Below are positions 12,504-39,360 of a stretch of DNA of 64,000 bases, one piece after another. The notes below the pieces were generated by a model. The model was given only the letters and a program-made list of their open reading frames with translations. It had not been told where the DNA came from and did no database searches. Position 1 is the stretch's first letter. Each line of letters begins with the position of its first letter. A program made the position numbers and the translations under genes. This DNA is from Chloroflexota bacterium (GTDB lineage Bacteria > Chloroflexota > Dormibacteria > CF-121), in the NCBI GenBank assembly GCA_005880615.1, contig VBID01000115.1, forward strand, positions 16,431-80,430, written 5' to 3'.

Positions 12504-12526
12504 GGTTCGACATCCTGGAGTAGCAG

Positions 12527-13516: not shown

Positions 13517-13643
13517 GGCGCCCAGTCTAGCAGTTGAACGTGTGTTTGGGGCTGGGGGAAACCGGTTCGAACGCGACCGAATCTGTATTCAAAAACATAT
13601 GTTCGACGGCTGGCAGCGCCTCTGTGGAAACTGTGGATAGATC

Positions 13644-13826
13644 AGCCCGGATCCACCGAGCGGACGAAGCAGATTGGGATGCGGGGCCAGATGAGCCGAA
13701 GGCGGCGACGAGCACGCGAAGGCGCGCACCCGTCGGTGCGTAACTGAGCGCGCGTCAGAGCCAACGCACGGATCGCTCGCATCCGCGCCCAAGATGCGAG
13801 TTGGTTTCGGTGGACGCGGGCTTAGG
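13644..13826. mobile_element. MITE-like element, copy A (TIR AGCCCGGATCCACCGAGCGGACGA ... TCGGTGGACGCGGGCTTAGG)
   Basis: Imperfect ~25-bp terminal inverted repeats shared with copies at 22724, 29586, 36365 and 57644; one internal unit containing the hairpin GCACC-CGTC-GGTGC. The cupin gene's stop codon (13822-13824) lies in the right TIR. Confidence 0.75.
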
Positions 13827-14169
13827 CGGTGGAGGTCCCGGCCCGGCCGTACTTGTCCTCCAGCCGCACCACATCATCGATCTCGGGGGAACTCACCTCG
13901 AAGAACTCGCAGTCGTCGACCGCGATCATCCGGTGCTTGCGGCCGGGCACGATGCGGCGAACCATCCCCGGTGTCAGCCGGTGGGTGTGCATCTGGCCCT
14001 GATCATCCTCCAGCTCCAGGTCCATGATGCCTTTCACCAGCAGCAGGGTCTCATCCTTCTGCTGGTGGTACTGCAGGCTCAACATCTCCCCGCGATTGAC
14101 GTGGATCACCTTGCCCAGGTACCGATCCGTGATGGCAAACCGATGCTCCCAGCCCCAGGGCTTGGCCAC
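13822..14169 (-). CDS. cupin-domain protein (mannose-6-phosphate isomerase type II C-terminal-domain-like)
   Basis: WGWEHRF...GEMLSLQYHQQKDETLLLVKG...HRLTPGMVRRIVPGRKHRMIAVDDCEFFEV is a cupin_2 fold. Start uncertain (GTG 14169 or TTG 14199, the latter overlapping the PGM stop). Confidence 0.65.
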   Translation of the reverse strand: MAKPWGWEHRFAITDRYLGKVIHVNRGEMLSLQYHQQKDETLLLVKGIMDLELEDDQGQMHTHRLTPGMVRRIVPGRKHRMIAVDDCEFFEVSSPEIDDVVRLEDKYGRAGTSTA

Positions 14170-14191
14170 CCTGGAGCCGTCGGCGGGTTGG

Positions 14192-16639: not shown

Positions 16640-16675
16640 GACTGTTCAATCGATAGCGGCATCCGGAACCTTCTG

Positions 16676-16714
16676 AATACCCCCACCCCACCCTCCCCGC
16701 AAGGGGGAGGGAAA
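16676..16714. repeat. GC-rich hairpin element copy inside the manC-gmd intergenic spacer (same operon)
   Basis: ACCCCCACCCCACCCTCCCCGCAAGGGGGAGGGAAAGG. Confidence 0.8.
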
Positions 16715-16736
16715 GGATTGCGTGCCACTGGACGGT

Positions 16737-22712: not shown

Positions 22713-22723
22713 GGGCCCTAGTG

Positions 22724-22787
22724 TAGCCCGGGTCCGCCGATCGGACGACGCAGATACGAGTTCGATTCGGTGGACGTCGGCTTATTC
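22724..22787. mobile_element. mini MITE copy (left and right TIRs only, ~64 bp)
   Basis: TAGCCCGGGTCCGCCGATCGGACGACGCAG + ATACGAGTTCGATTCGGTGGACGTCGGCTTA; the marR stop codon (22782-22784) is the TAA of the right TIR. Confidence 0.7.
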
Positions 22788-23270
22788 TCGGCGAGGAGCC
22801 ATCAGCCCGGGCCGGACGGGACGCAGGTGGGCCTGGAGCCGGTTGAGCAGGCTTACCAGCTGCTGCTGTTCAAGCGCACCGAGGCCGGCGAAGATCCGCC
22901 CGACGGCGCGGTTGTGCTCGGGGAGCATCTCGGCCAGTAGGATTCGAGCCCGGTCCGTCATCTCGACCCGCAGCATGCGCCGGTCCTCCGGATGCCGCAC
23001 CCGGCGGACCAGCCGGCGGCGCTCCAGGCCGTCCAGCAGCCCGGTGACCGTGGCCCGGCTGACCGCCAGCCGGTCGCTGATCTGGTGGGGGGCGGCCGAT
23101 CCACCAGACTCGTGCAGGACCTGGAGGACGCCGAACGCCGCGCTGGAGAACCCCTGCCGGCGGACGCTGCGGTCGAGCTCGGAGCTGATCAGGCTGCCCA
23201 GCTGGCGCAGCCCAGCGGCGCAGGCGCCCGCGCGGGGCATCGGGCGGCGGACTGCCAGCGGGGCGGTCAC
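22782..23270 (-). CDS. MarR-family transcriptional regulator
   Basis: Winged-helix region SAAFGVLQVLHESGGSAAPHQISDRLAVSRATVTGLLDGLERRRLVRRVRHPEDRR. Confidence 0.85.
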   Translation of the reverse strand: MTAPLAVRRPMPRAGACAAGLRQLGSLISSELDRSVRRQGFSSAAFGVLQVLHESGGSAAPHQISDRLAVSRATVTGLLDGLERRRLVRRVRHPEDRRMLRVEMTDRARILLAEMLPEHNRAVGRIFAGLGALEQQQLVSLLNRLQAHLRPVRPGLMAPRRE

Positions 23271-23393
23271 CCCCTCAGGCTAGCAGAACCTGGACCATAG
23301 TTTGGAACCTAATGATTTGGGCATAAACGACCTGAAACCGGGGTTCCCCGGTACGAGGCTACGGTTTCCGTAAGGGGTTAAAGGAGAACTGAA

Positions 23394-25730
23394 ATGGCTG
23401 AGGTGAAGACCGAACTGCTTCCCCTCCTCTCGTTAAACAACGGGGTTGTGCTGCCCGGCATGGTGGTCACCATCCCGCTCGACCGGGAGGAAGCCCGGGC
23501 TGCCGTCCAGGCCGCGCGAGCTGGCGATAGCCTGTTGCTGCTGGTCCCGCGGGTGGAGGGTCGCTACGCCACCCTGGGCACCGTAGCTCGGGTCGAGGAT
23601 TCGCGCAAGCTGGCCAACGGGATCGAGATCACGGTCCTGCAGGGCCAGTACCGAGCGTCTGTCGGAAGCGGCGCGGGGGGAACCGGGCCCGCCCTGCGCG
23701 TCATGGCGCAGCCGGTGGCGGACGTCAACCCGCTCACCGAGCAGGCCCATGTCCAGGCCCGTGAGTACAAGGCCCTGATCGAGAACCTGCTCGAGCTGCG
23801 TGGAGCTGCGGACGCCATCCAAATGGTGCGCAGCATCGACCGGCCGAGCCAGCTGGCGGACCTGTCGGGCTACTCGCCGGATCTCTCGCTGGAGCGAAAG
23901 GTCGAGGTCCTCGAGACGCTCGACGTCGAGGCTCGGCTGCAGAAGCTCATCGGCTGGACGCGCGAGATCCTGGCCGATGCGTCCCTCAAGGACAAGATTC
24001 GCAACGAGGTCCAGGAGGGGATGGAGAAGCGCCAGCGTGAGTTCTTGCTCCGGCAGCAGCTGGAGGCCATCAAGAAGGAGCTCGGCGAGGAAGGCGGCGA
24101 CGTGGTCGCCGAGTACCGCCGGCGGATCGAGGAAGCCGGCATGCCGGACGCCGTACGCAGCGAGGTCGAGCGTGAGCTCGGCCGGCTGGAGCGCACCAGC
24201 GAGCAGAACCCGGAGGTCGGCTGGATTCGCAACTATCTCGACTGGATGCTCGACCTGCCCTGGAACAAGCGGACCGAGGATCGGTTCGACGTGGCCGAGG
24301 CGCGGCGCATCCTGGACCAGGACCACACCGGCCTGGACGACGTGAAGGATCGCATCATCGAGTTCCTCGCCGTCCGGAAGCGGCGCGAAACGCGCGGCCT
24401 GGGCGTCGCCGGCGGCCGTGGCTCCGGCGCCATCATTACCCTGGTCGGCCCGCCCGGCGTGGGCAAGACCTCCCTGGGGGAGTCGGTCGCCCGGGCGCTG
24501 GGTCGCAAGTTCACCCGCATCTCGCTGGGTGGCATCCATGATGAGGCGGAAATCCGCGGACACCGGCGCACCTACGTGGGCGCTCTGCCGGGCCGGATCG
24601 CGCGCGCCCTGAAAGAAGCGGGCACGCGCAACCCGGTGATCATGCTGGACGAGATCGACAAGGTCGGCAACGACTGGCGGGGCGACCCGTCGTCGGCCCT
24701 CCTGGAGGTGCTCGATCCGGCGCAGAACCACTCCTTCCGCGATCACTACCTGGAGGTCGACCTCGACCTGTCCGAGGTCCTCTTCATCCCCACGGCCAAT
24801 GTGGCGGACACCATCCCCGGGCCATTACTGGACCGGATGGAGATCATCCGGCTGGACGGCTACACGGAGGAGGAGAAGGTCGCCATCGGCCGCGATCACC
24901 TGCTCCGGCGCCAGCTGGAGCGCAACGGACTGAGCGTTGATGAGGTGAGCGTGACCGACGAGGCGATCCGGCGGATCATCGCCGAGCACACCCGCGAGGC
25001 GGGCGTTCGCAACCTGGAGCGCGAGCTGGGCCGGTTGCTGCGCAAAGTGGCGACCCGCATCGAGGGTGGCAAGCTGAGCGCACCCGTGCGCATCGACACG
25101 GTCGACGTCCGCGAGTACCTAGGGAGGGCCAAGTTCCAACCGGAGGCGGCCGAGCGCACCGAGGTGCCCGGCGTGGCCACCGGCCTGGCGGTCACCGGAA
25201 CCGGCGGCGAAGTCCTCTTTGTGGAGGCCGCCGTCATGGACGGCCCCAAGGGGCTGACCCTGACCGGGCAGTTGGGCGACGTGATGAAGGAGTCGGCGCA
25301 GATCGGGCTCTCGTACGTCCGCTCCCATGCCGCGGAGCTGGGCATCGGTCCCGGCTTCGAGGAGAAGGGCTTCCACGTGCACGTGCCGGCCGGCGCGGTT
25401 CCGAAGGACGGTCCCTCGGCGGGCGTGACCATGGTAACGGCGCTGGTGAGCCTGATGACGGCGCGGCCGGTGCGGAGTACCGTGGGCATGACCGGCGAGG
25501 TCACCCTGCAGGGCACCGTGTTGCCCATCGGCGGCGTCAAGCAGAAGCTGCTGGCGGCCCATCGAGCCGGACTGACCGAGATCATCCTGCCCTTCCGCAA
25601 CGAGGGAGACCTGGACGATCTGCCAGCCAGCGTCCGGCAGGCGATGACGATTCACCTGGTCCGCGATGTCCGCGAGGTGCTGGAGAAAGCGCTCCAGCCG
25701 CAGCCGATGACGGTGAACAAAGCGGCCTAA
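23394..25730 (+). CDS. lon: ATP-dependent Lon protease
   Basis: 778 aa; LON N-domain, AAA+ (GPPGVGKTS, Walker B MLDEIDK), and protease domain with catalytic Ser (PKDGPSAGVTMVTALVS) and Lys; strong RBS AAAGGAGA. Confidence 0.95.
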   Translation: MAEVKTELLPLLSLNNGVVLPGMVVTIPLDREEARAAVQAARAGDSLLLLVPRVEGRYATLGTVARVEDSRKLANGIEITVLQGQYRASVGSGAGGTGPALRVMAQPVADVNPLTEQAHVQAREYKALIENLLELRGAADAIQMVRSIDRPSQLADLSGYSPDLSLERKVEVLETLDVEARLQKLIGWTREILADASLKDKIRNEVQEGMEKRQREFLLRQQLEAIKKELGEEGGDVVAEYRRRIEEAGMPDAVRSEVERELGRLERTSEQNPEVGWIRNYLDWMLDLPWNKRTEDRFDVAEARRILDQDHTGLDDVKDRIIEFLAVRKRRETRGLGVAGGRGSGAIITLVGPPGVGKTSLGESVARALGRKFTRISLGGIHDEAEIRGHRRTYVGALPGRIARALKEAGTRNPVIMLDEIDKVGNDWRGDPSSALLEVLDPAQNHSFRDHYLEVDLDLSEVLFIPTANVADTIPGPLLDRMEIIRLDGYTEEEKVAIGRDHLLRRQLERNGLSVDEVSVTDEAIRRIIAEHTREAGVRNLERELGRLLRKVATRIEGGKLSAPVRIDTVDVREYLGRAKFQPEAAERTEVPGVATGLAVTGTGGEVLFVEAAVMDGPKGLTLTGQLGDVMKESAQIGLSYVRSHAAELGIGPGFEEKGFHVHVPAGAVPKDGPSAGVTMVTALVSLMTARPVRSTVGMTGEVTLQGTVLPIGGVKQKLLAAHRAGLTEIILPFRNEGDLDDLPASVRQAMTIHLVRDVREVLEKALQPQPMTVNKAA

Positions 25731-25755
25731 CGGACGACTGAGCCTCTACCGCCTG

Positions 25756-25788
25756 ACTACGACCCGGCGCATCGCCGGGTCGTAGTCG
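25756..25788 (+). terminator. lon terminator hairpin
   Basis: GACTACGACCCGGCG-CAT-CGCCGGGTCGTAGTC is a perfect 15-bp stem; it is immediately followed by a GC-rich hairpin element copy (25799-25833). Confidence 0.7.
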
Positions 25789-25857
25789 TGATTGCAGGGC
25801 CACCCCCACCCCTACCCTCCCCTGGGGGAAGGAGAATCTTGGAGGACAATCCACTAA

Positions 25858-27123
25858 ATGCTCGGGGGTAGCCGCCTGTGGCGGCAGCCAGATTTCCTCA
25901 AGCTCTGGACGGGCCAGACCATCAGCGTGGTCGGCAGCCAGGTCACCGTGCTGGCCTTGCCCACCATCGCCATCCTGCTGCTGCACGCGACCGCCGCGCA
26001 GGTTGGACTGCTGGCCTCGCTCCAGCGGCTGGCGTTTCCCGTCCTGGCGCTGTTTGCCGGTGTGTGGATCGACCGCGTCCGCCGCCGCCCGCTCATGATC
26101 GCCGCCGACGCGCTGCGGGCCGTGGCCTTGCTGTCGATACCCCTGGTGGCGGTGGTTGGAACGCTGACGCTGCTCCAGCTTTACGCGGTGGCCGCCATCC
26201 TGGGCATCGGCACGGTCCTCTTTGACATCGCCTATCTCGCGTATGTGCCGACGCTGGCCCGGCGTGCCGACCTGCTGGAGGCCAACACCAAGCTGGAAGT
26301 GAGCCACTCCGGTTCGTACCTGTTCGGACCGGCACTGGCCGGAGGGTTGATTCAGCTGGTGGGCGCAGCGCAGGCCATGCTGGCCGACGCGTTTTCGTTC
26401 CTGGTGTCCGTCGCCACCATTGCCTGGATCCGGCAGCCGGAGCCTTCGCCACGCGGTGACGGCCACCCGCGGCTGAGCGTCCTGGCCGACATTCGGGACG
26501 GTATCCGACTGGTCTTCGGAAATCCAATCCTGCGAAACATGGCCCTCATGCTGACGGTCGGGGCCGTGGGATTCCACCTCGCCGAACCGGCGTTCTACCT
26601 GTTCGCCTACCGAAACCTGGGGCTGAGCCCGGGAGCGCTGGGGCTGGTCTTCGCCGCCGGGGGCGTGGGCGCGGTGATCGGAGCATTCATCGTGGGTACG
26701 GTCGTCCGCCGCCTTGGGCTGGGGGCAACGCTGGCCATCACCATCGCCGGAGTCGGAGCCGGGTTCCTCTTGTGGCCGCTGGCGCTGGTTGGCCCGCCAC
26801 TCGCCACCCTGGTGGGCGCCGAGTTCCTGGTCGGGGTCAGCGATTCCATTTACAACGTCAGCCAGGTGAGCCTGCGGCAGTCGGTGACGCCGGACCATCT
26901 CCAGGGGCGAATGACCGCCACCCTGCGCACCATGTTCTGGGGGGCCTGGCCGCTGGCCAACCTGGCGGGCGGAATTCTGGCGGGCGCGGTGGGCGCCCCC
27001 ATCACCATCGTGATTGGCGGTCTGATCGGGATGGCTTCCGCGCTGATCGTCGTCTTCGGACCACTGGGCCGGCTGCGAGAGCAACCGGGCGTCGCGGGCC
27101 AGCCTGGGATCGAGCCCCGATGA
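25858..27123 (+). CDS. MFS transporter
   Basis: 12-TM profile; MFS motif A-like GVWIDRVRRRP between TM2 and TM3. Confidence 0.8.
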   Translation: MLGGSRLWRQPDFLKLWTGQTISVVGSQVTVLALPTIAILLLHATAAQVGLLASLQRLAFPVLALFAGVWIDRVRRRPLMIAADALRAVALLSIPLVAVVGTLTLLQLYAVAAILGIGTVLFDIAYLAYVPTLARRADLLEANTKLEVSHSGSYLFGPALAGGLIQLVGAAQAMLADAFSFLVSVATIAWIRQPEPSPRGDGHPRLSVLADIRDGIRLVFGNPILRNMALMLTVGAVGFHLAEPAFYLFAYRNLGLSPGALGLVFAAGGVGAVIGAFIVGTVVRRLGLGATLAITIAGVGAGFLLWPLALVGPPLATLVGAEFLVGVSDSIYNVSQVSLRQSVTPDHLQGRMTATLRTMFWGAWPLANLAGGILAGAVGAPITIVIGGLIGMASALIVVFGPLGRLREQPGVAGQPGIEPR

Positions 27124-27124
27124 C

Positions 27125-28540
27125 CTACGGGATCAGCCCCTTACGGATGACCCGCCACTCGTCCGCGTCGACGGCGCGCAGCAACACCAACGCCACCGCG
27201 TACACGGCGGCCCCAACCAGGATCACCAGGACAACGGGCCAGGATCGAAGCAGCAGGACGGCGAGGCCCATCACGCCGCCACTCAGGAGGATGCGGGCGA
27301 TGCCGCGCACCACCGGCAGCGCGTACAGGTGGCGACGCAGCAACCACCAGCCGCCCAAAAAGAGCGCCAGCTCGGTGAGGACCGCGGCCCAGCTGGCGCC
27401 GAGGTATCCGAACGGCGGAATCAGGGCCAGGTTGAGAACCACATTGACCACCAGGGTGGCCAGCGCCAGCCGGGTGAAGTCGGCCTGGCGGTTGATCGCC
27501 GTGAGCGTATAGATGAAAGCATTGTTCAAGAAGAGGAAGACCACCGAGAGCGCCAGGATGGCCAGGGCGGGGATGGTTTGCTCGTAGCCGCGGACGGCGT
27601 GCACCAGCGCAGGCGCCGTGAGGGCAATGCCCACCGCCAGCGGGACCCCCACTACGGCCAGCAGGCGGTAGGACTTCTGGTAGGCGAGCGAGAGGCGGTC
27701 CTTGCCGGAGACCGACAGCAACGACAGAGCCGGGAAGACGGCGTTCATCGCCGTCTGCGGGATCCAGGCGATGGCGTCGACGTACTTGTTGGCGGCCACG
27801 TACCAGCCGACCATCCGGAAGTTGGTGAACAGCTGCAGCAGCACGACATCGACCTGGGCGTAGATGCTGGTGATGACAAAGCCGAGGGCGAGGGGTGCGC
27901 CGCTCCGTAGGACATCGCGCAGGAAGCCCAGGTCGAGGCGGGGCGACGGCCGCTCGCGCCAGATGCCGAAGATCACCCCCAGGGCCAGCAGGCAGGTGAA
28001 GAGGTAGCTGGCCGCATACACCCAGAGGAAGGCGTCCCATGACGCCCGATGGCCGACGGCGTACAGGGTCAGTCCCAGCAGGACAGCGGCCTCACCCAGG
28101 ATGGCCACCACCTCATAGCCCAGCGTGCCCCGCGCGTAGAACGCGGAGCGGAGGAGACCCGAGTAGGAAACGGTGATCAGCAGCACGAACGCCCCCAGCG
28201 TGAACGGGAACAGCGCCGGCGCCAGCAGGCGCAACGCCCCCGCCAGCACCAGGCCGGAGAGGACCAGGAGCAGCAAACGGACGCTGATCAGGTTGCCGAG
28301 ATAGCGGTCGAATACGGCTCGGTCGCGGGCCACGTCCCGGACAAAGACGGTCTGCGTCCCAAGGTCGGCCAGCAGCTGGGCCAGGCTGACGTACACGATC
28401 ATCGCCCCGAAGCGCCCGTACTCGGCGTCGGCGAGGTGACGCCAGAGCAGGACCACCACCACGAACGTCGCGACCTTGGCCACGGCGCGACTGCCGACCA
28501 CCAGGGCGGTGTTGCGAAAGGTGCGGCTAGCGAGACTCAC
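27125..28540 (-). CDS. MOP-superfamily polysaccharide flippase (Wzx/MATE-like)
   Basis: 471 aa, ~14 TM; N-terminal NTALVVGSRAVAKVATFVVVVLLWRHL typical of polysaccharide biosynthesis/export proteins. Confidence 0.75.
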   Translation of the reverse strand: MSLASRTFRNTALVVGSRAVAKVATFVVVVLLWRHLADAEYGRFGAMIVYVSLAQLLADLGTQTVFVRDVARDRAVFDRYLGNLISVRLLLLVLSGLVLAGALRLLAPALFPFTLGAFVLLITVSYSGLLRSAFYARGTLGYEVVAILGEAAVLLGLTLYAVGHRASWDAFLWVYAASYLFTCLLALGVIFGIWRERPSPRLDLGFLRDVLRSGAPLALGFVITSIYAQVDVVLLQLFTNFRMVGWYVAANKYVDAIAWIPQTAMNAVFPALSLLSVSGKDRLSLAYQKSYRLLAVVGVPLAVGIALTAPALVHAVRGYEQTIPALAILALSVVFLFLNNAFIYTLTAINRQADFTRLALATLVVNVVLNLALIPPFGYLGASWAAVLTELALFLGGWWLLRRHLYALPVVRGIARILLSGGVMGLAVLLLRSWPVVLVILVGAAVYAVALVLLRAVDADEWRVIRKGLIP

Positions 28541-28556
28541 GTGTCACGCCGGGATT

Positions 28557-29588
28557 ATGAACGGTTACGATTTGCGGACCATGGGCTCCCCCAAACCCCG
28601 CGTGTTTTCCGGCATCCAGCCCAGCGGCGGGTTGCACCTGGGCAACTACCTGGGCGCCATCCGCAACTGGGTCCGCGACCAGGACAAGTACGACAACATC
28701 TTCTGCGTCGTCGACCTGCATGCGATGACCCTACCCTGGGATCCGAAGCTCCTCCGGGAGAACACCCTCCAGGTGGCGGCCGTCTACCTGGCCTGCGGCA
28801 TCCGCCAGGACACCTCCACCATTTTTGTCCAGTCGCGGATCCCGGCCCACTCCGAGCTGGCCTGGATCCTCACCTGCCTGACCCCGATGGGCTGGCTGGA
28901 GCGGATGACCCAGTTCAAGGAGAAAAGCGCCGGCGAGCAGCGCGAACGGGTGGGCACCGGCCTGCTGACCTACCCGGCGTTGATGGCCGCCGACATCCTG
29001 CTGTACGAAACCAATTTCGTGCCGGTCGGCGAGGACCAGCGCCAGCACATCGAGTACACTCGCGACATTGCCCAGCGGGTCAATCAGCGATTCGGCCAGG
29101 TCCTCACCCTGCCCGAGGCCCTGATTCCCAAGGCAGGCGCCCGGATCATGGGACTGGACGACCCGGAACGGAAGATGAGCAAGACCCTGGCCCAGGCGAA
29201 TCCGGGCCATGCCGTCTTCCTGACCGACCCGCCGGAGGTGATCCGCAAGAAGTTTGCCCGCGCCCAAACCGACGCCGAGCCCGCCGTTCGCTTCCCGCCC
29301 GGCCCGGGAGTCGCCAACCTGCTCCAGATCTACCAGTCGGTCACGGAAACGACGGCCGAGAACCTGGAGCGCACCTTCGCCGGCAAGTCGTACAACGAGC
29401 TCAAGCAGGCCGTGGCCGAAGCCGTCATCGCGGCCCTGCGCCCCATCCAGGAGCGCTATCGTGAGATCCGGTCCGACGACGCGCAACTGGTCCGCGACCT
29501 GGACCGGGCGGCCGACCGGCTGGCGGTGACAGCCAACGCGACGCTGGCGCGCGTGCAGCGGGTGACGGGATTGCTGGGCCATGACTAA
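28557..29588 (+). CDS. trpS: tryptophanyl-tRNA synthetase
   Basis: Class I aaRS: FSGIQPSGGLHLGNY (HIGH-like), KMSKT. Start at ATG 28557 or 28581; the upstream part of ORF 28476..29588 overlaps the divergent flippase gene. The TAA stop is the first three bases of MITE copy B. Confidence 0.9.
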   Translation: MNGYDLRTMGSPKPRVFSGIQPSGGLHLGNYLGAIRNWVRDQDKYDNIFCVVDLHAMTLPWDPKLLRENTLQVAAVYLACGIRQDTSTIFVQSRIPAHSELAWILTCLTPMGWLERMTQFKEKSAGEQRERVGTGLLTYPALMAADILLYETNFVPVGEDQRQHIEYTRDIAQRVNQRFGQVLTLPEALIPKAGARIMGLDDPERKMSKTLAQANPGHAVFLTDPPEVIRKKFARAQTDAEPAVRFPPGPGVANLLQIYQSVTETTAENLERTFAGKSYNELKQAVAEAVIAALRPIQERYREIRSDDAQLVRDLDRAADRLAVTANATLARVQRVTGLLGHD

Positions 29589-29745
29589 GCCCGGATCCGC
29601 CGATCGGACGACGCAGATTGGGATGCGGGACGAGCTGAGCGGAAGGAAGCGACCAGCACGCGCAGGCGCCCTGGCAGCGGCTGAGCCTGGTCAATCCCGA
29701 CCAGGACTGCGCTAGCTCGTTGCTGGCGGTGGAGGGAGCCGTCGG
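29586..29745. mobile_element. MITE-like element, copy B (left TIR intact, right TIR degenerate)
   Basis: TAAGCCCGGATCCGCCGATCGGACGACGCAGATTGGGATGCGGG... shares >85% identity over the first ~60 bp with copies C and D. Confidence 0.7.
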
Positions 29746-29769
29746 GGGCGTGCGCTGGATGGAGCTTCC

Positions 29770-30045
29770 GGAGGCGGATCAGAGGCAGATCGCCGCGCAC
29801 GCCGCTCAAGCTAAGCGGTCTTCCGAGTAAGTTCTGCTCGAGGTGCGGACCTTTGTCCAGGGACACCCCCACCCCTACCCTCCGCGCAAGGGGGAGGGAG
29901 AGTTAAGGTCGGAAGCAGATCGCCGCGTATGCTGCTCGAGCCAAGCGGTCTACTGGGTAAGTTCTGCTCGAGGTACGGGCCTTACTCCAAGGACACCCCC
30001 ACCCTTGCCCCTGCCCGCAAGGGAGAGGGAGAGGGGAAGGCGGCA
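29770..30045. repeat. two tandem ~130-bp units, each ending in a GC-rich hairpin element
   Basis: CAGATCGCCGCGYAYGCYGCTCRAGCYAAGCGGTCTWCYGRGTAAGTTCTGCTCGAGGTRCGGRCCTTWSTCCARGGACACCCCCACCC...GCAAGGG.GAGGGAGAG appears twice consecutively. Confidence 0.75.
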
Positions 30046-30249
30046 TCGCCAGAGAGGATGGGCGAAGGCTTGAATCCTTTGACGATCATCCAGACGGCAA
30101 GACTCATCTCCGAAGCGAACACCGGGATGGCCGCGATCAACCCCCTGCGATCGCCGCGACGGCGGCAACAATGAAGAACACGCCAGCCACCACCGCAATC
30201 CTTCCAGTGGAATTCACGCCACGCTCCTTTTTGCTTTCCACATGGCGGT

Positions 30250-31236
30250 TCATGCGGCTGCCACCGAAATGACGACCTTTCCTCGAGCGTGTCCGGTTTC
30301 GAGATAGCGGATCGCATCTGGTGCTTCGCTCAACGCATACGTCCGGTCGATGACCGGTGTGATCCTGCCGGCCTCAAGCAGTTCCCGTAGAAACTGCAGG
30401 TCAGCGCTACTTGGCTTGGCGATAAGCGGACGCATCGTCTGGCCGCCGATGAACGGCGACAACAGGAGGGCCTTAATGATCCGGCCGACGGGCCCGATGA
30501 TGCGACCGGGGGAGTCACCGCTGCTGAGGACGAGCGTGCCGGCTGCGGTGAGGGCGCGTCGGCAGGCAGATGGGGAGGCGGTGCCCGCCAGTTGAAAGAT
30601 CAGGTCGTACTGTTGACCAGTCCGGGTGAAGTCCTCCCGGGTGTAGTCGATGACGCGGTCGGCGCCGATCGAGCGGACCATCTCCAGGTTCCTCGTGCTG
30701 CAGACTCCGGTCACCTCCGCGCCGTACCACTTCGCGATCTGCACGGCAAACGTCCCGACACCTCCGGACGCCCCGACGATCAGGACCTTCTGCCCCGACC
30801 GGATCGCTCCGGCATCACGAAGGCCTTGCAGAGCGGTCACCGCCGCAAGCGGGACGGTGGCCGCTTGCTGGAAGCTGAGGTTGGCCGGCTTCACCGCCAG
30901 CAGTTTTTCGGGAGCCGAGACGTACTCCGCGAAGCCGCCCGATCCGACAAAACCGAAGACCTCGTCGCCCGGCCGAAACCGCGTCACGGCATTGCCGACC
31001 GCCTCGACCTCCCCCGCCACATCGGTGCCGAGAACTGAGTGCTTGGGCCGGCGCAGTCCGGTTGCCATCAGGCGGGCGATGTAAGGTACGCCCCTCATGA
31101 AGTGCCAGTCGTACGGGTTCGCGGAAGCGGCGCGAACCCGAAGCAGAACCCTGTCACTCTCGATGTCGGGTTTGCGGACCTCCTTGACCTCGAGAACATC
31201 GGCTGAGCCGTACTTCTGGTATGCGATCGCCTTCAT
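30250..31236 (-). CDS. NADPH:quinone oxidoreductase / zinc-independent MDR-family dehydrogenase
   Basis: MKAIAYQKYGSADVLEV...; cofactor-binding LIVGASGGVGTFAVQIAK. Start at the second ATG (RBS AGGAGGAG spacing). Confidence 0.8.
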   Translation of the reverse strand: MKAIAYQKYGSADVLEVKEVRKPDIESDRVLLRVRAASANPYDWHFMRGVPYIARLMATGLRRPKHSVLGTDVAGEVEAVGNAVTRFRPGDEVFGFVGSGGFAEYVSAPEKLLAVKPANLSFQQAATVPLAAVTALQGLRDAGAIRSGQKVLIVGASGGVGTFAVQIAKWYGAEVTGVCSTRNLEMVRSIGADRVIDYTREDFTRTGQQYDLIFQLAGTASPSACRRALTAAGTLVLSSGDSPGRIIGPVGRIIKALLLSPFIGGQTMRPLIAKPSSADLQFLRELLEAGRITPVIDRTYALSEAPDAIRYLETGHARGKVVISVAAA

Positions 31237-31262
31237 TCCCATCTCCTCCTACCGCCTTTACC

Positions 31263-31311
31263 GGGTGTACATCGTACACCCAGTGCGCAGTGTAGGTGTA
31301 CGTCGTACACT
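31263..31311. promoter_or_regulatory. two palindromic operator sites (GGTGTAC-nnn-GTACACC) in the divergent qor/tetR intergenic region
   Basis: GGGTGTACATCGTACACC (31263-31280) and AGGTGTACGTCGTACACT (31294-31311): perfect 6-7-bp inverted half-sites with a 3-bp spacer, repeated twice, directly upstream of a TetR-family gene. Confidence 0.65.
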
Positions 31312-31330
31312 TGTCAAGAGGAAATAGGAT

Positions 31331-32026
31331 TTGGCTAAGCAGATCGAGGCTCCGCGCCGGGCCCCCCTGAGCAGGGGCCGCGTGCTGCGCGCCGCCGTGG
31401 CGCTTGCCGACGTTGGCGGGATCGAGTCGCTCAGCATGCGCAAGCTCGCGGAGGACCTGGGGGTCGTGCCGATGGCGCTCTACAAGCATGTGGCCAACAA
31501 GGAAGAGCTCCTGGACGGCATGATCGATGTCGTCGTGGGCGAGATCGATCCCCCGGCCACCGGAACCGAGTGGAAGAGCGCGGTCCGGCAGCGAGTCCTC
31601 TCGGCGCGACAAGCGCTCCTCCGTCACCCGTGGGCGTCTTTCGTGATCGAATCGAAGAAGACCCCCACACCGATGGTGCTGGAGTACATGGACTCGATGA
31701 TCGGGTTATTCCGGGCGGGCGGCTTCTCCGTCAATCTCACGCATCACGTGATGCATGTCATCGGCAGCCGGGTGATGGGGTTCACCCAGGAGCTATTCAA
31801 TGACTCACGCACTGTGGATCCAGAAGTGCAGGCGGTCATGATGCGTGAGCTGGGACCGAAGTTTCCCAACGTGCTGGCGATCGCCATGGCGGCCTCCCAT
31901 GAGGGGGAGTCGGTCGTCGGTCAAGGCTGCGACGATCAGTTCGAGTTCGAGTTCGCGCTGGATCTCCTCCTGGACGGATTCGAAAGACTCCGACAGGAGG
32001 AGCGGGCAAGGGAGACCGCGAGTTAG
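31331..32026 (+). CDS. TetR-family transcriptional regulator
   Basis: HTH LSMRKLAEDLGVVPMALYKHVANKEELL plus TetR C-terminal ligand-binding domain; TTG start. Confidence 0.85.
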   Translation: MAKQIEAPRRAPLSRGRVLRAAVALADVGGIESLSMRKLAEDLGVVPMALYKHVANKEELLDGMIDVVVGEIDPPATGTEWKSAVRQRVLSARQALLRHPWASFVIESKKTPTPMVLEYMDSMIGLFRAGGFSVNLTHHVMHVIGSRVMGFTQELFNDSRTVDPEVQAVMMRELGPKFPNVLAIAMAASHEGESVVGQGCDDQFEFEFALDLLLDGFERLRQEERARETAS

Positions 32027-32029
32027 AAG

Positions 32030-33550
32030 CTAGGCGGTCCCTTCGGCGACCTTCTCGGTGACCTGGTACTCGAGGTACATACCCAGCATCAGTCGGGTCT
32101 GCGCCTCCAGCGCCGGGAGCACACTCAGGAAGAGCCCGACCACGGGATAGCTCACCAGCTGGAAGTACGACCACAGCTGACGCCACCAGCCCCAGCGCGG
32201 CGGCCGGGGCGGGTTGAGCCGTGACTCCACCCAGATCAGCAAGGCGATGTTGAGGAGCGTGATATTCAGCAGGCCAACCGTGATGCCGCCCAGCGAGGCG
32301 GCCGCGTTGGTCAGGCTCCAGTCGAAGTTCAACAGCCGGGGAATGGCGGCCCCGAAGAACAGCAGGATGGGGAGCGTGGCCCAGGTGAGGTGGTTGAACA
32401 CCATGTACCCGTAGCGCCGGGCGCGGAGCCACCAGGGAATATCGCTCCGTCGCAGCAGCCGGACGGTCACGTAGGGCAGGTCGCTCACCCCCCAGGCCCA
32501 CCGTTTGATCTGGTTGTACTGGTTCACGTGGGTGCTGCTCCAGTCCCGCGACTGGGGGGCGTCGCCATAGATGGGCAGGCAGACGGGGATCATCTTCAGC
32601 CGGCCGGCGGTGGTAAAGAAGGCTTTCCAGTAAAAACGGGAATCCTCGGGGATGACATCGTCATCCCAGTAGCCCACCCGGGCCACCAGGTCGAGGGACA
32701 TCGAGTAGCTGCTGAAGGCCACCAGCCGGTCCGGTCGCGACTGCAGGAACATCTGGTACTGGGTGCAGGCGCTGGCCATCACCCGGATCGCGGTCGGGAC
32801 CCGCCACAGGTTGTTGTGGAACATCGGGATGGGCTGGTAGATGCGTTCCAGGCGGCCAGGGTCCAGCACGTAGCGGTACGTGATGCAGCTGAAATACTCC
32901 CTGTGGACGCGAAAATCAGAATCGAGGTCAGTGATGACGACGTCTTTGGGGTCCAGGCCCATCCGGTCGAGCTCCTGCTTCAACACCGGCCCGCCGTAGG
33001 CCATCGCCGCCGACTTGCCGACCACGATGCCCGGCAGCAGCGGATCCTTGATGTGGAAGAACGCCCGCAGCCGGGGGCCGAACTCCTCCTGGAGCCGGCG
33101 AACGTTGTCCCACCCGGGCCGGTCCGTTTCCCGGGTGATGATCGCCACCACCTTGTTCTCGGCTGGGTAGTGGGCGTCCACGATGGCCTTGACGGTGGCC
33201 CGCAGGATCTCGTAGGGCTCGGTATAGGTGGGGATAAGGGCGGCGTGGATCACCTGGCGCGGGTCGGGACGGCTGGGATCGGTGGGCAGGTCGAGGCACC
33301 GCTGCCACCAATCCACGGCCTCCGTCATCCGCAGCTTCCGGTAGGTCCGCAGGATGCCGGCCACCACCAGGAAGGAGCGGGCAAACCAGTACACGTCGAT
33401 GACCACGATGGCGAAGGCCACGTAGGCGGCGAAGGGGAGGGAGGCGACCAGGGGCGCTGCCAGGATGATCCAGGTGAGCGTCCCGGGGGCGCGCTCGAGT
33501 GCCCGTTGGACCCGGCGCTGGGCGGGAGTGAGTACGGCTGTCCTCGGCAC
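32030..33550 (-). CDS. membrane-embedded processive family-2 glycosyltransferase (QxxRW motif)
   Basis: 506 aa; N-terminal TM helices, GT-A catalytic domain with DxD (ITDLDSD), QIKRWAWG (the Q(Q/R)xRW motif of cellulose/chitin/hyaluronan-synthase-like processive GT2 enzymes), and C-terminal TM bundle. Confidence 0.7.
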   Translation of the reverse strand: MPRTAVLTPAQRRVQRALERAPGTLTWIILAAPLVASLPFAAYVAFAIVVIDVYWFARSFLVVAGILRTYRKLRMTEAVDWWQRCLDLPTDPSRPDPRQVIHAALIPTYTEPYEILRATVKAIVDAHYPAENKVVAIITRETDRPGWDNVRRLQEEFGPRLRAFFHIKDPLLPGIVVGKSAAMAYGGPVLKQELDRMGLDPKDVVITDLDSDFRVHREYFSCITYRYVLDPGRLERIYQPIPMFHNNLWRVPTAIRVMASACTQYQMFLQSRPDRLVAFSSYSMSLDLVARVGYWDDDVIPEDSRFYWKAFFTTAGRLKMIPVCLPIYGDAPQSRDWSSTHVNQYNQIKRWAWGVSDLPYVTVRLLRRSDIPWWLRARRYGYMVFNHLTWATLPILLFFGAAIPRLLNFDWSLTNAAASLGGITVGLLNITLLNIALLIWVESRLNPPRPPRWGWWRQLWSYFQLVSYPVVGLFLSVLPALEAQTRLMLGMYLEYQVTEKVAEGTA

Positions 33551-33823
33551 GGTCCTCCTCGTGGCGGCCGCCCCCGATGGGCTGGGAGGGGCTGAAACCT
33601 AGTCTAATCGGCGCTTTGAGACACGATTTGCACCATTACCCCCCAGCGGCACTGTCAGGACCTGCGGCCGTAGCCTTCCAGACAGGGACCGTCTATACTG
33701 AAGGTCGGGTTGCCGACAGGTTCGTGAGGGGCCTGTCCGATGCTCGTCACACGGGCACCCAGCCGTCGAGCCCCCGACCTGCCAGAACGCAGGCCCAATG
33801 ATGCGCACTAAGGAGCGCGCTGT

Positions 33824-36367
33824 TTGAGCATACGGATCCCGCCTGTCGCTGCAGGATCACCCTTCGCCCGCCGCGCCCCGGACCTGGTGGCCCGGCGGAT
33901 TGCCGTCTCGGCCGCGCCCGATAGTCAGGCGGCTGCCTTGCTGGAGCACGCCGGGCCTGACGTCCTGACCCGCCTGATGACCGAGGCTACCGAGGGCGAC
34001 GGCTACGTCGACATCACAGCCACGCCCGTCCGCCTGACCCTTCACCTGCAGAAACGAACCACCACCTCCATCGAGCGCTTCGGCCTGCTCGGGAGCCTCT
34101 ACGGCACCGCCAGCAAAGACCTGGCCTTTGCCGTGGAGCGGCTGCAGCAGGACCCCGATCCGACCAAGGATGCCGGCGACATCCTCGCCATCGAGGTGGA
34201 GGAGGTGGTCCTGGACGCGCCGGCGTACTCGGCCGGTGACGATTGGGTGCAGCGGCGCCTGTGCGCGTTGCAGGAGGCCGCCTCCTTGCCGCTGGTGCTC
34301 GCCGGCCAGGAATTCGCCAACCACGAGCGCCAATGGCTGGCCAAGCAGGCCGAGCAGGACGCTCGCCCCTACGAAGTCGAAACCGAGGGCTTTATCTGCG
34401 GGAAGTGCGACAACCTCCAGCAAAACGGCCCGCGCTGCGCCGTCTGCGGGACTACCACCGGCGACCGGGCTGCCGGCGCGGTCATCGTGCTCAGCCGGCG
34501 AGGGGGCTTCAAAGAGGGCGACCGGGTGGTCATCACGCCCAGCGTGGGAAGCGAACGTGAAGGCCAGCTGCTGCGAGCCCAGGGCGGAGGCGGCCGGCGC
34601 TGGCTGGTCAAGTTACGCGACGAGGGTGCGCTTGGCCCGGGCACCATCCGGCCCCAGCCCATCACGGCCGTGGTCGAGGTCCAGCAGCGGACCCTCAACG
34701 GATTCGGAGCCGGCGACATCAGCCTGCGCCGGGTGGCGGCGCTGCTGATTGCGCCGGATGAGGTCCGGCCTCCGGTGGCCTCCGCCATCGAGCCGTTTGA
34801 CGCGCGGCTGAACCCCAGCCAGCGGGAAGCAGTCGCCGGCGGCACCGGGCTGCAGCCCGGCTCGATGATGCTGGTCCAGGGGCCACCCGGCACCGGCAAG
34901 ACCACCTCCATCGTGGAAACGGTGCGCCAGCTGGTGGCGCGCGACCCCGACGTCCGCATCCTCATGACCTCGCATGCCAACACCGCAGTGGACAACGCTC
35001 AGGAGCGGCTGCAGGGGCTGGACTCGCTCCGGATGGTACGCATCGCCGAGCCGGAGAAGGTGGACCCCAAGTTTCGCTCCAGCATCGTCGATTCCGACGA
35101 TCCACGGGTGCGCAGCGCGCACGTCGTGTTCGGCACCGTCAACCGGATCGCGCTGGCCTGCCGGGAGGCCGAAATGTTCGATTGGCTGATCCTGGACGAG
35201 GCCAACAAGGTGCGCTTCACGGAGACGCTGCCACTGCTGCGGTTGGCCCCCCGCTGGCTGCTGGTGGGTGACCACCGGCAGCTCCCGCCGGTGCTCGATG
35301 AGAGCGCAGCCGCCTTTCCGGTCGACGAGGACGAGGCCCGGGTGATGGTTCGGGATGCCAGCTTCTTCGAGCTCAGCTGGGCCGTCCTGCCGGAATCCAA
35401 CCTGGTGATGCTGGATGAGCAGTACCGGATGGCGGCGCCCATCGGGACCTACGTGTCGCAGGCGTCCTACGACGGGCGGCTCAAGAACAGCCCGGAGATG
35501 GGGGCCCTGCGCTCCCCGTTGCCCTGGCCCTTCAACCGCAACTTGACCTGGCTCACCATCCGCGGGCGCGAGAAGAAGAGCGGGTCCGGCAGCCTGAGCA
35601 ACCGGGCTGAGATCGAGGCCGTGGGACGCGTGGTCCGCCACCTGCAGCGGCTGGGCCTCGGCCATTTGAAGGTGGCCGTCATCGCCATGTACCAGGACCA
35701 GGTGACCCAGCTGCGACGGGAGCTGCGCACCATCGACCTGCCCGAGCTGTACGTCGATACCGTGGACGCCTTCGAGGGTGAGGAGGCGGACGTCGTCATC
35801 CTGAGCCTGGTCCGCAGCAACGAGGCCGAGCGCATCGGCTTCCTCAAGAAGGCACAGCGGCTGAACGTCGCCATCTCCCGCGCCAAGCACCTGCTGATCG
35901 TGGTCGGGGATATCGAGACGCTAACCGGGCGGGAAGGGCAGGACCTGTATCGGCCCCTGCTGGAGCACATCGAGCGTGAGGGCCGGGTGGCCGGCATTGG
36001 CGCCCTCCATGCCATGGACGCTGCCGCCGGTGGACGGCACCGAGATCGGCGCCGCGGGCGCGTTGGGCAACCCGCGGTCGGCCGTCGGGGACGGCGCCGC
36101 CGGCCCTATGTCGCCAGCGGGGCGGCGACCCCAGCCGTCAGTCCGAATGGCGCTGAGACGGCGGCTGAAGGCACGCCGGCCGGACCCGTCGCGGATGGGG
36201 CAGCCGGCCAGCCGACGGCCGCGCCGCGCCGGTTCAGACGTCGGCGAGGACGGCGGCGTGGGCCCGGCCGCCCACCGCTGAATGGGGAGGTGGGCCAGAC
36301 ACCAGCTGGCGAGCAGCCAGCCACGCCGGCCCAGCCCCAGCCGGCTCCGATCGCGCAGGCCGACTAA
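33824..36367 (+). CDS. Upf1-like/DNA2-like SF1B helicase with novel Zn-ribbon N-terminal domain and Arg/Gly-rich C-terminal tail
   Basis: Helicase motifs: I GPPGTGKTT, II LILDEANKV, III VGDHRQLPPV, IV DEQYRMAAPIGTYVSQASY, V/VI DAFEGEEADVVILSLVRSN...LNVAISRAKHLLIVVGD (AAA_11/AAA_12 architecture). The N-terminal ~330 aa has no recognised domain apart from a CGKCDN...CAVCG zinc ribbon. The last ~120 aa are low-complexity (RHRDRRRGRVGQPAVGRRGRRRRP...RRFRRRRGRRRGPGRP). The stop TAA is the first triplet of MITE copy C. Confidence 0.8.
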   Translation: MSIRIPPVAAGSPFARRAPDLVARRIAVSAAPDSQAAALLEHAGPDVLTRLMTEATEGDGYVDITATPVRLTLHLQKRTTTSIERFGLLGSLYGTASKDLAFAVERLQQDPDPTKDAGDILAIEVEEVVLDAPAYSAGDDWVQRRLCALQEAASLPLVLAGQEFANHERQWLAKQAEQDARPYEVETEGFICGKCDNLQQNGPRCAVCGTTTGDRAAGAVIVLSRRGGFKEGDRVVITPSVGSEREGQLLRAQGGGGRRWLVKLRDEGALGPGTIRPQPITAVVEVQQRTLNGFGAGDISLRRVAALLIAPDEVRPPVASAIEPFDARLNPSQREAVAGGTGLQPGSMMLVQGPPGTGKTTSIVETVRQLVARDPDVRILMTSHANTAVDNAQERLQGLDSLRMVRIAEPEKVDPKFRSSIVDSDDPRVRSAHVVFGTVNRIALACREAEMFDWLILDEANKVRFTETLPLLRLAPRWLLVGDHRQLPPVLDESAAAFPVDEDEARVMVRDASFFELSWAVLPESNLVMLDEQYRMAAPIGTYVSQASYDGRLKNSPEMGALRSPLPWPFNRNLTWLTIRGREKKSGSGSLSNRAEIEAVGRVVRHLQRLGLGHLKVAVIAMYQDQVTQLRRELRTIDLPELYVDTVDAFEGEEADVVILSLVRSNEAERIGFLKKAQRLNVAISRAKHLLIVVGDIETLTGREGQDLYRPLLEHIEREGRVAGIGALHAMDAAAGGRHRDRRRGRVGQPAVGRRGRRRRPYVASGAATPAVSPNGAETAAEGTPAGPVADGAAGQPTAAPRRFRRRRGRRRGPGRPPLNGEVGQTPAGEQPATPAQPQPAPIAQAD

Positions 36368-36721
36368 GCCCGGATCCGCCGATCGGACGACGCAGCTTGG
36401 GATGTCCGGCGAGATGAGCGGTAGGAGGCGACGAGCACACGCAGGAGCGCACCTGAATGGTGCCTAACCGAGCGCGCGCAGGAGACGACACCCGGAGCCC
36501 GGGGCCGTCGGACGAACGAAGCAGATTGGGATGCGGGGCGTGCCGAGCCGCAGGAGGCGACGAGCACGCGAGGGAGCGCATCCGTCGATGCGTGACTGAG
36601 CGCGCGCAGGAGACGACGCCCGGATCGGCCGCAGCCGCGCCCAAGATGCGAGTTTGTTCCGGCGGCCTCGGGCTCAGCTCGCCCGGCGCCCAGGAGGCAA
36701 GTTCGATTCGGTGGATTCGGC
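36365..36721. mobile_element. MITE-like element, copy C (two internal ~125-bp tandem units)
   Basis: Left TIR TAAGCCCGGATCCGCCGATCGGACGA; right TIR (reverse complement) GGCCGAATCCACCGAATCGAAC; ~90% identical to copy D throughout. Confidence 0.8.
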
Positions 36722-36726
36722 CGTGA

Positions 36727-37659
36727 CTAGCTCGTCTTCGCCGGCGGCCCGCCCGCAGGGGCCGCGTCGAGCACCCCGCGGAGTGCCTGGACGGCACCGA
36801 GCAAGCCCATGGACTCGTAGGGCACGACGATCTTGGAATTGTCGCTGGCCGCGAACTTGCTGAGCGTATCGAGCTGCAGGATGGAGACCAGGGTTGGATC
36901 CGGAGCGGCGTCGTGGATTGCCTTGTAGACCGTGGCAATGGCCTGGCCCCGGCCTTCGGCTTCGAGAATGGTCGCCTGGCGAATGCCCTCGGCGCGCAGG
37001 ATGGCCGCCTGCCTCTCCCCTTCCGCGTTCTTGATGGCGGCCTGCTTGGCGCCGTCGGCAATGTTGACGGCCGATTGCTGCTGTCCCTCCGACTTGAGGA
37101 TGAGAGCCCGCTTCTCCTGGTCGGCCGTCTTCTGGAGCGCCAGGGCGTTCAAGATCTGCTGGGGCGGCGCGATGTCGACGATCTCGATCCGGTTGATCCG
37201 GATCCCCCATTTGTCGGTGACCGATTCCATCTGTTGTTGGAGTTGGGCGTTGATGCGCTCCCGCTGGCTGAGGGCCTCATCCAGGGTCATCCCACCGAAG
37301 ATGGCCCGCAGGGTGGTCCGGGAGAGCTGGTCAATAGCGATGAAGTAGTTGCTGACACTGAAGAGGGCCAGCTTGGCATCAACCACCTGGCTGAAGATGG
37401 TGGCGTTCACGCTGACCGTGACGTTGTCGCGCGTGATGACGTCCTGCTTGTCGCCGGTGCGAGGCGTTTCGCGGATGTCCACTAGCTGCAGGTCGTCGAT
37501 CAGCGGGACCAGGAACACCACGCCCGGCGGGCGCGAGCCGAGGAACTGGCCGAGCCGCTTGATGACGCCCACGTAGCCCTGCTGCACGATGCGGACGGTC
37601 CGGGCGATGACCAGGATGATCAGGAGGACGAGAATCCCGATGAAGATGGCGAGGCCCAT
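36727..37659 (-). CDS. SPFH/band-7 protein (stomatin/prohibitin-like)
   Basis: N-terminal TM anchor, SPFH domain (VQQGYVGVIKRLGQF...), coiled-coil Ala/Gln-rich C-terminal region. Confidence 0.9.
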   Translation of the reverse strand: MGLAIFIGILVLLIILVIARTVRIVQQGYVGVIKRLGQFLGSRPPGVVFLVPLIDDLQLVDIRETPRTGDKQDVITRDNVTVSVNATIFSQVVDAKLALFSVSNYFIAIDQLSRTTLRAIFGGMTLDEALSQRERINAQLQQQMESVTDKWGIRINRIEIVDIAPPQQILNALALQKTADQEKRALILKSEGQQQSAVNIADGAKQAAIKNAEGERQAAILRAEGIRQATILEAEGRGQAIATVYKAIHDAAPDPTLVSILQLDTLSKFAASDNSKIVVPYESMGLLGAVQALRGVLDAAPAGGPPAKTS

Positions 37660-39136: not shown

Positions 39137-39213
39137 TGGTGCCCTCGGCAGGACTCGAACCTGCGACGCCCGCCTTAGGACGGCGGCGCTCTGGTCCCCT
39201 GAGCTACGAGGGC
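39137..39213 (-). tRNA. tRNA-Arg (anticodon CCT), CCA encoded
   Basis: Reverse complement GCCCTCGTAGCTCAGGGGACCAGAGCGCCGCCGTCCTAAGGCGGGCGTCGCAGGTTCGAGTCCTGCCGAGGGCACCA. 7-bp acceptor stem, D arm GCTC/GAGC, anticodon stem CCGCC/GGCGG with loop GTCCTAA, T-loop TTCGAGT. Confidence 0.9.
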
Positions 39214-39284: not shown

Positions 39285-39360
39285 TCGGGGCGTAGCTCAG
39301 CCAGGTTAGAGCGCACGGTTCGGGACCGTGAGGTCGGTGGTTCAAATCCACTCGCCCCGA
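39285..39360 (+). tRNA. tRNA-Pro (anticodon CGG)
   Basis: CGGGGCGTAGCTCAGCCAGGTTAGAGCGCACGGTTCGGGACCGTGAGGTCGGTGGTTCAAATCCACTCGCCCCGA. Acceptor CGGGGCG/CGCCCCG, anticodon loop TTCGGGA, T-loop TTCAAAT; no encoded CCA. Confidence 0.9.

Follow-up and report, generated by a model that had tools for sequence, protein, structure and literature searches.

A G+C-rich palindromic repeat at the stop codons of Chloroflexota genes, and its probable placement by target preference

A stretch of 64,000 nucleotides (nt) from a Chloroflexota bacterium (GenBank assembly GCA_005880615.1, contig VBID01000115.1, positions 16,431 to 80,430 of the forward strand; hereafter the window) raises the question of how copies of a single repeat come to stand at the stop codons of four different genes. 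The genes encode a cupin / mannose-6-phosphate-isomerase-like protein, a MarR-family protein, TrpS and an SF1 helicase; the initial annotation held that each ends on a TAA belonging to the terminal inverted repeats of a shared element, which either targets stop codons or TTAA/TAA sites at gene 3' ends or has replaced the native C-termini. The TAA that abuts the element is indeed the stop codon in all four cases: TAAGCCCGGATCC occurs at 29586 and 36365 with 0 mismatches, and the minus-strand stops at 13822-13824 and 22782-22784 are the final three bases of copies reading TAAGCCCGCGTCC and TAAGCCGACGTCC (reverse complement). Nine of the approximately 55 gene-like open reading frames (ORFs) of the window, filtered by G+C content at third codon positions (GC3), terminate in TAA, and four of these nine carry the element. 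It is proposed here that target preference and selection, rather than C-terminal remodelling or dedicated homing, probably place the element at stop codons.

A hairpin repeat and the genes that end at it

The repeat family is non-coding, approximately 180-183 nt long and an imperfect palindrome over its whole length (GCCCGG...CCGGGC), with a core of GCCCGGATCC...GGATYCGGGC and no ORF inside. Its ends, GCCCGGATCCACCGA... and ...TCGGTGGATYCGGGC, base-pair as terminal inverted repeats of 25-30 nt; on folding, the consensus forms a single hairpin of -113.3 kcal/mol (z = -9.75), and an alignment of 66 copies displays compensatory double changes in 19 of 59 hairpin pairs. The G+C content of the element is approximately 70%, that of the window 67%. 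Searches with nhmmer locate six loci in the window (copies A to F, Table 1) and 142 full-length matches in 161 related sequences, 93 of them unique by their flanks; a left-end scan of a genome collection yielded 43 loci and an internal-motif scan of metagenomes another 111. The copies come from related soil Chloroflexota (Limnocylindria-like) metagenome-assembled genomes (MAGs) and metagenomes, and nearly all of the 43 genome-collection loci belong to two soil MAGs. These share the repeat family and are labelled 'Candidatus Limnocylindria' (SMAG_U11626, 97% nucleotide identity to the window) and 'Candidatus Eisenbacteria' (SMAG_U11657, 93%); there is probably an error in one of the two labels or in the binning. 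By the homologs of its TrpS and cupin, the organism itself falls among Chloroflexota/Limnocylindria-like soil bacteria. The element has no match in Rfam at gathering thresholds, copy B has none at E <= 1, and the plasmid collection contains no match to the element.

Compound copies also occur, in which an internal unit of approximately 128 nt is duplicated in tandem; the unit is bounded by a direct repeat, GCCCGGATC, at element positions 4-12 and 127-135. The arrays measure 355, 403-405, 480, 533 and 661 nt, in steps of approximately 128 nt (the largest at L152, 1112-1772), and the 355-nt form is itself dispersed in at least 11 copies. Copies E and F were considered as nested insertions; this was rejected and they were reinterpreted as internal tandem duplications, since their inner junctions contain no duplication and the arrays grow by approximately 128 nt.

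The cupin site provides the clearest comparison of filled and empty states. Three relatives without the element (L163, L164 and L165; 91-93% amino-acid identity) read ...ACC GCC TGA tctatccacagtttcc, where the window reads ...ACC GCC TAA (177-nt core) TGA tctatccacagtttcc; the element stands exactly at the stop codon, and the site has grown by the core and a further 3 nt. The native TGA has been displaced to the far end of copy B (TCA at 13642-13644 on the plus strand) and TAA is now in use. Nearly all of 59 listed homologs share the C-terminal ...GRAGTSTA, and two continue beyond it; judged from this comparison, the C-terminus is native and the protein is unaltered by the insertion.

A similar result is obtained for trpS, whose relatives without the element stop at the same position with TAG (L049, GAC TAG) or TGA (L048, L044 and L045, GAC TGA). 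The TrpS of L049 has 95% amino-acid identity to that of the window, and the ending ...GLLGHD is common to the window and the relatives without the element; the aligned sequences indicate that the stop position is native. The gene likely starts near 28557, giving 343 aa as in the closest homologs. Downstream of trpS, a segment of approximately 2.4 kb (29672-32029) separates it from a convergent 506-aa gene and is without counterpart in L049, L044, L045 and L047; it holds other repeats, a zinc-dependent alcohol dehydrogenase (ADH) gene (30250-31242, minus strand) and a TetR gene (31331-32026, plus strand). The extra DNA begins at the point where copy D is truncated, which indicates a rearrangement breakpoint at an element copy. 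A GGTCGGAAG match downstream of trpS was considered as the far side of the copy D insertion and dropped, being too short and located inside another repeat.

The marR gene is known from filled orthologs: L092 reads CGG TAA TAA(element), L030 reads CGA TAG TAA(element), and both the window and L010 read CGA GAA TAA(element), so that MarR is one residue longer in the latter two than in L030 and L092. As L030 and L092 stop one codon upstream, the native stop appears to have mutated to Glu in the window lineage, after which the element-adjacent TAA took over; on this alignment a secondary mutation at the native stop, and not the insertion, lengthened the protein. L030, 93% identical, carries a full 183-nt element where the window has the 62-nt copy C. 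A gap between the window and L030 at approximately 25.7 kb was tried as a further filled/empty pair and rejected, as it involves a different C-rich hairpin repeat.

The helicase, alone of the four gene products, looks shortened and may have lost approximately four residues, as judged from homologs. Approximately 25 of these share the disordered tail and end in ...AQAVERGS*, whereas the window and L138 (95.5% nucleotide identity) end in ...AQAD* at the element; the 3' end reads gcc gtc gag cac agc gcc TGA in L161 and gcc gac TAA(element) in the window and L138. The conserved disordered Arg-rich tail is encoded by 35950-36364 and has a RKFRRRRGRRRG motif; the conserved C-terminal ...REPAAQAVERGS of the homologs is missing in the window. 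On the right flank of copy E (36720-36730 in the window, 1380-1480 in L138) the two sequences differ, the window having a Band7 gene there, and the more distant helicase orthologs L161 and L162 have a DUF1684 gene and a short-chain dehydrogenase gene downstream; by this comparison, synteny breaks at copy E. The proposed replacement of native C-termini thus fails for the cupin and TrpS, is trivially true of MarR and is plausible for the helicase.

Flanking triplets and the frequency of stop-codon overlap

The flanks were surveyed in 71 unique, non-nested copies after de-duplication. On the left, TAA (20) and TTA (12) predominate; on the right, TTA (20) and TAA (14). In 20 of 71 copies (28%; by hand tally TAA/TAA 11, TTA/TTA 7, TCA/TCA 1, TAG/TAG 1) the two sides have the same triplet, where permutation predicts 8.2 and none of 20,000 shuffles reaches 20; inverted-identical triplets are found in only 3/71. 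When T-N-A is present on both sides the middle bases covary (AA 11, TT 7, AT 1, TA 0), and this, together with the identical pairs, argues that the flanks act as direct T-N-A repeats and not as part of an inverted repeat. The TAA that had been assigned to the terminal inverted repeat does abut it; it acts as a flank, either target-derived or a 3-nt tail, outside the conserved inverted repeat. The wider target is palindromic, GC-TNA-GCC, with C at -1 in 65% and G at +1 in 76%; the heads of the element read TAAG, TTAG, CAAG, TCAG, CTAG or GTAG, and a sizeable minority of copies adjoin another copy, judged from flanks that resemble element ends. A TA duplication with mariner/IS630-type ends (TA + AGCCC...GGGCT + TA) was considered and rejected, as it predicts TAA/TTA flanks, which are seen in 1/71 only.

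Stop codons of GC3-supported incoming ORFs are overlapped by 24 ends in 21 of the 71 copies (30%), whose flanking triplet lies on a stop or one base off it. Eleven overlaps are exact (8 TAA, 2 TGA, 1 TAG), twelve are of the form xTA+G, in which a TAG is made of the flank plus the first base of the element, and one is offset by -1; at an additional 16 ends the stop is 3-18 nt away, and 41 of 142 ends are within 18 nt of the stop of the incoming gene. At ten survey ends an ORF reads more than 3 nt into the element. The stops used at element borders are TAA 17, TAG 14 and TGA 4; elsewhere they are TAA 115, TAG 231 and TGA 276. Outside ORFs (approximately 139 kb) there are 752 T(A/T)A triplets, compared with 132 TAA stops, from which approximately 15% of insertions would be expected at stops, an approximate null because the survey gene calls are crude (ORF length and GC3); the exact overlaps, 11/71, match it. 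Since approximately 15% of eligible triplets are already stops, no homing to stop codons is needed. Of the proposal that the element targets TAA-like sites or stop codons at gene 3' ends, the first part is borne out by the T-N-A-like flanks, the empty cupin sites and the unchanged trpS stop, and a dedicated stop-codon specificity is not required.

Weighing the explanations

Under the favoured explanation, target preference combined with selection, the repeat would be a non-autonomous mobile element of approximately 180 nt moved by a transposase. It would integrate at short T-N-A-like triplets, mainly TAA or TTA and preferably within the wider palindrome, after which T-N-A would stand on both sides; insertions inside ORFs would presumably be removed by selection. 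Because T-N-A is rare outside ORFs at 67% G+C and intragenic copies are lost, stop codons would form a large share of the tolerated targets. When a stop codon is the target, the junction would keep an in-frame stop at the same position, either the flanking TAA or a TAG composed of TA and the first G of the element; with an in-frame stop retained, the protein is unchanged and the insertion survives. Presence/absence differences between orthologous sites speak for mobility: besides those at the cupin and trpS genes, junction BLAST detects empty sites at L069, L137, L153, L080 and L021. The empty and filled states read CAA and CAA...TTC at L137, TAA and TAA...TGG at L115, and ACC and AAA...TTC at L061.

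Several observations weigh against this explanation. A plain 3-bp duplication is at odds with the flank bases, since those adjacent to the core are 96-97% invariant and the outer ones approximately 60% T/A, and by hand tally the pairs TAA/TAG and CTA/TTA recur often, but their mirror images TAG/TAA and TTA/CTA do not occur. At two independent recent insertions, the cupin site and L069 (flanks 98% identical to the empty site), an empty TCA has become TCA...TTA. No autonomous insertion sequence (IS) or transposase with matching ends is present in the window, the 43 MAG loci or the 111 metagenome loci, so that mobility is argued from presence/absence polymorphism only and membership of a specific transposon family cannot be shown. 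Likewise, Pfam detects no transposase in the ORFs beside copy D, which are the ADH and TetR genes, and 1.15 Mb of related DNA contains neither long repeats nor end pairs with a spacing above 661 nt; as the sampling is centred on the small element, the missing autonomous partner is weak evidence. The approximate null and the possibly shortened helicase count on the same side.

These flank asymmetries are what would be expected if the stop codon were borne by the element, a possible account although not the likely one, in which the core plus TTA (180 nt) moves without duplication and inserts directly 3' of a host YTA/TYA on either strand, as do single-strand HUH/Y1 transposases (IS200/IS605, or repetitive extragenic palindromic (REP) sequences with REP-associated tyrosine transposases (RAYTs)) or Spy-type elements. 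At a stop codon, the element would slip in directly after the last sense codon; the gene would then end on the TAA of the element, and the native stop would be pushed 180 nt downstream. The cupin gene, which uses TAA and has its native TGA beyond the element, fits this, as do L069 and L137. Within the subfamily that resembles copy B, 12 of 15 copies have TTA as the right triplet with a variable left one, or TAA as the left triplet with a variable right one (hand tally); at the 11 exact overlaps the codon in use is TAA in 8, and the far triplet is a stop in 9 (TAA 5, TAG 3, TGA 1). A hairpin spanning the whole element, with covariation, is expected of a single-stranded substrate, and the heads GTAG, TTAG and CTAG followed by GCCCGGAT resemble REP heads. 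This account is opposed by identical non-TWA pairs that look like true duplications (TCA/TCA in one or two copies, TAG/TAG in one), by the supposed TTA ending in A in only 20 of 31 right-hand TTN triplets, and by L115 and L061, which do not fit it. Furthermore, no RAYT or Y1 gene is seen among the 14 window ORFs scanned, and a length of 180 nt with terminal inverted repeats of 25-30 nt is more MITE-like (MITE, miniature inverted-repeat transposable element) than REP-like. A more specific form of the idea, considered doubtful, is a stop-preserving inserter, a giant hairpin similar to a REPIN (a REP doublet that forms a hairpin), moved single-stranded or in the manner of Spy elements without a target-site duplication (TSD) and carrying its own terminal TTA (= TAA). 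If true, such an element would swap host stops for its own TAA with the native stop displaced by 180 nt, would have a built-in route to harmless AT-rich sites of a GC-rich genome, and would occasionally rescue the loss of a stop codon, as at marR.

It is unlikely that the hairpin is instead a module that the host has selected because, like REP elements, it stabilises mRNA 3' ends, acts as a terminator or modulates translation termination. Its strong structure is kept by compensatory changes and its ends gather close to the stops of incoming genes (41/142 within 18 nt); in E. coli, REP hairpins near stop codons reportedly affect translation and mRNA decay, an effect attributed to work by Liang, Rudd and Deutscher in 2015. 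The rate of stop overlap, however, equals the target-availability null, and copies are also found 5' between divergent genes (copy F, whose flanks are not stop codons, so that the element occurs outside gene 3' ends), inside other repeats and adjoining one another. No U-tract follows the stem, and a terminator scan finds no intrinsic (Rho-independent) terminator at the element; close relatives do well without a copy at the cupin and trpS sites, and the covariation may be subfamily inheritance or serve transposition.

C-terminal remodelling, by which insertion upstream of native stops would truncate or extend proteins and the terminal TAA would become the new stop, is considered improbable. The altered helicase ending, the additional MarR residue and the ten survey ends with ORFs running into the element are in its favour, but relatives without the element have the same cupin and TrpS C-termini as the window, the MarR change derives from a stop mutation, and the helicase tail is disordered and fast-evolving, with no close relative with an empty site among those compared. 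The chance that TAA stops meet repeat ends by mere coincidence is close to negligible: the 13-mer alone, with 3 mismatches allowed, is not significantly enriched in the window (25 matches vs 22.5 expected), yet four of the 6 window loci overlap a stop exactly, 24 ends of the 71 independent copies overlap one, the usage of stop types at borders differs strongly from background, and the flank triplets are non-random. Target preference with selection is therefore retained as the probable explanation.

Relation to known repeats, other window features and significance

The element resembles bacterial MITEs and the palindromic repeats of intergenic regions (ERIC, Correia/NEMIS, RUP, YPAL): it is shorter than 200 bp, lacks coding sequence, occurs in many copies and has terminal inverted repeats; as in such families (PMC2229807), the ends form a long stem, most copies are extragenic and 3' of genes, targets are biased and filled/empty polymorphism is observed. 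It is short without an ORF, dispersed, bounded by terminal inverted repeats and polymorphic for presence (cupin, trpS, L069, L137, L153); with regard to a TSD, identical 3-nt flanks occur in 20/71, yet recent filled sites read TCA...TTA. Most of the bacterial MITE families described have A+T-rich sequences that end in TA and duplicate TA (PMC2229807), unlike this element, which is G+C-rich with T-N-A-like 3-nt flanks, comes from uncultured Chloroflexota and has no cognate IS found. As far as the literature could show, the G+C-rich family is undescribed, although its general kind is familiar; searches on MITEs at stop codons and IS5 T-N-A targets returned general reviews and one statement on IS1031 3-nt sites.

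Tourist MITEs duplicate TAA/TTA. Insertion sites of three nucleotides characterise the IS1031 group of IS5 (PMC2516522), and canonical Harbinger elements have 3-bp TSDs while some relatives have none (PMC12730594), the latter a precedent for an element-borne stop. In its T-N-A-like 3-nt flanks the element resembles the IS5 family (IS1031/IS427) and the PIF/Harbinger-Tourist group, and its ends may be similar to those of IS1031; it differs in that its flanks are exact repeats in only 28%, its inner and outer flank bases behave differently, and no transposase or full-length IS was found. With REP/REPIN-RAYT and IS200/IS605 systems, in which a hairpin is essential, it shares a GC-rich palindrome just downstream of stops and a short head by the stem (xTAG/TAAG vs GTAG), and insertion beside a short target without duplication, as in REP/RAYT systems, would explain its asymmetric flanks. 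REPs are 20-40 nt and REPINs approximately 100 nt with an invariant GTAG head, whereas the element is 180 nt with a head that is variable on one side; also unlike REP/REPIN, its identical non-TWA flank pairs argue for some duplication. In a GC-rich mycobacterial genome, mycobacterial interspersed repetitive units (MIRUs) are said, from work by Supply et al. in 1997, to have ends overlapping the upstream gene's stop codon; they consist of direct repeats in tandem, contain small ORFs and couple translation within operons, and unlike the element they are not palindromic and lack inverted termini.

Table 1. Copies of the element, adjoining genes and a second repeat family in the window (positions are those of the window)
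Feature	Position	Strand	Description
Copy A	1350-1530	-	full length, reversed; flanks TAA/TAA
DAO-type gene	1535-2701	-	Pfam; stop TAG, copy A left end 4 nt downstream
Copy B	13642-13824	+	canonical 183 nt; core 13645-13821; left flank TCA 13642-13644, right flank TTA 13822-13824
Cupin / mannose-6-P-isomerase-like gene	13822-14271	-	Pfam cupin/MannoseP_isomer (weak); stop TAA 13822-13824
Copy C	22723-22784	+	62 nt, internally deleted, only both ends left; right flank TTA 22782-22784
marR-family gene	22782-23270	-	Pfam MarR; stop TAA 22782-22784
trpS ORF	28476-29588	+	Pfam tRNA-synt_1b; stop TAA = copy D flank
Copy D	29586-29671	+	left-end remnant, element positions 1-84; flank TAA 29586-29588
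SF1 helicase gene	33824-36367	+	Pfam AAA_11/AAA_12; disordered Arg/Pro-rich tail; stop TAA = copy E flank
Copy E	36365-36725	+	compound, 355-361 nt; left flank TAA 36365-36367; right end degenerate
Band7/SPFH gene	36727-37659	-	Pfam; convergent; stop TAG 2 nt past copy E degenerate right end
Copy F	57643-58003	+	compound, 96% identical to copy E; between divergent genes; flanks CAA / TTA
C/G-rich hairpin repeats	6109-6153, 12533-12610, 16675-16719, 29862-29906, 29993-30037, 61021-61310, 62771-62811		

A second repeat family in the window consists of C/G-rich hairpins (CCCCCTCCCC..CCCTCCCCGCAAGGGGGAGGGAGA) that are unrelated to the 180-nt element and lie mostly just 3' of genes; elsewhere (L051, L069) the 180-nt element is inserted in the TCA loops of such hairpins. 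Local direct repeats of approximately 100 nt occur at 29779-29880 / 29909-30010 (83%) and 61127-61226 / 61276-61375 (86%), the latter pair overlapping a short hydrophobic-looking coding stretch. A small plus-strand ORF (12364-12504) between an ABC-transporter ATPase gene and C-rich hairpin repeats encodes a hydrophobic peptide of approximately 46 aa, with a weak TAAGCCCGAATCC match just upstream at 12322. Divergent tRNA genes (Rfam RF00005) are located at 39140-39213 (minus strand) and 39286-39360 (plus strand).

The flank pattern deviates from a textbook duplication, which makes the integration mechanism worth resolving. Copies at synteny breaks, after trpS and after the helicase, may drive rearrangements. 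Housekeeping genes such as trpS have a hairpin of -113 kcal/mol starting right at their stop, and it is plausible from the predicted fold that this hairpin affects the structure of the 3' untranslated region (UTR) or terminator; at marR the flanking TAA serves as a back-up stop. In Limnocylindria-like MAGs the element bears on the annotation of stop codons, 3' UTRs and contig breaks, and stop usage is shifted at element borders, with TAA and TAG enriched and TGA depleted. More generally, a mobile repeat can be steered to stop codons by its target specificity in combination with the base composition of the genome.

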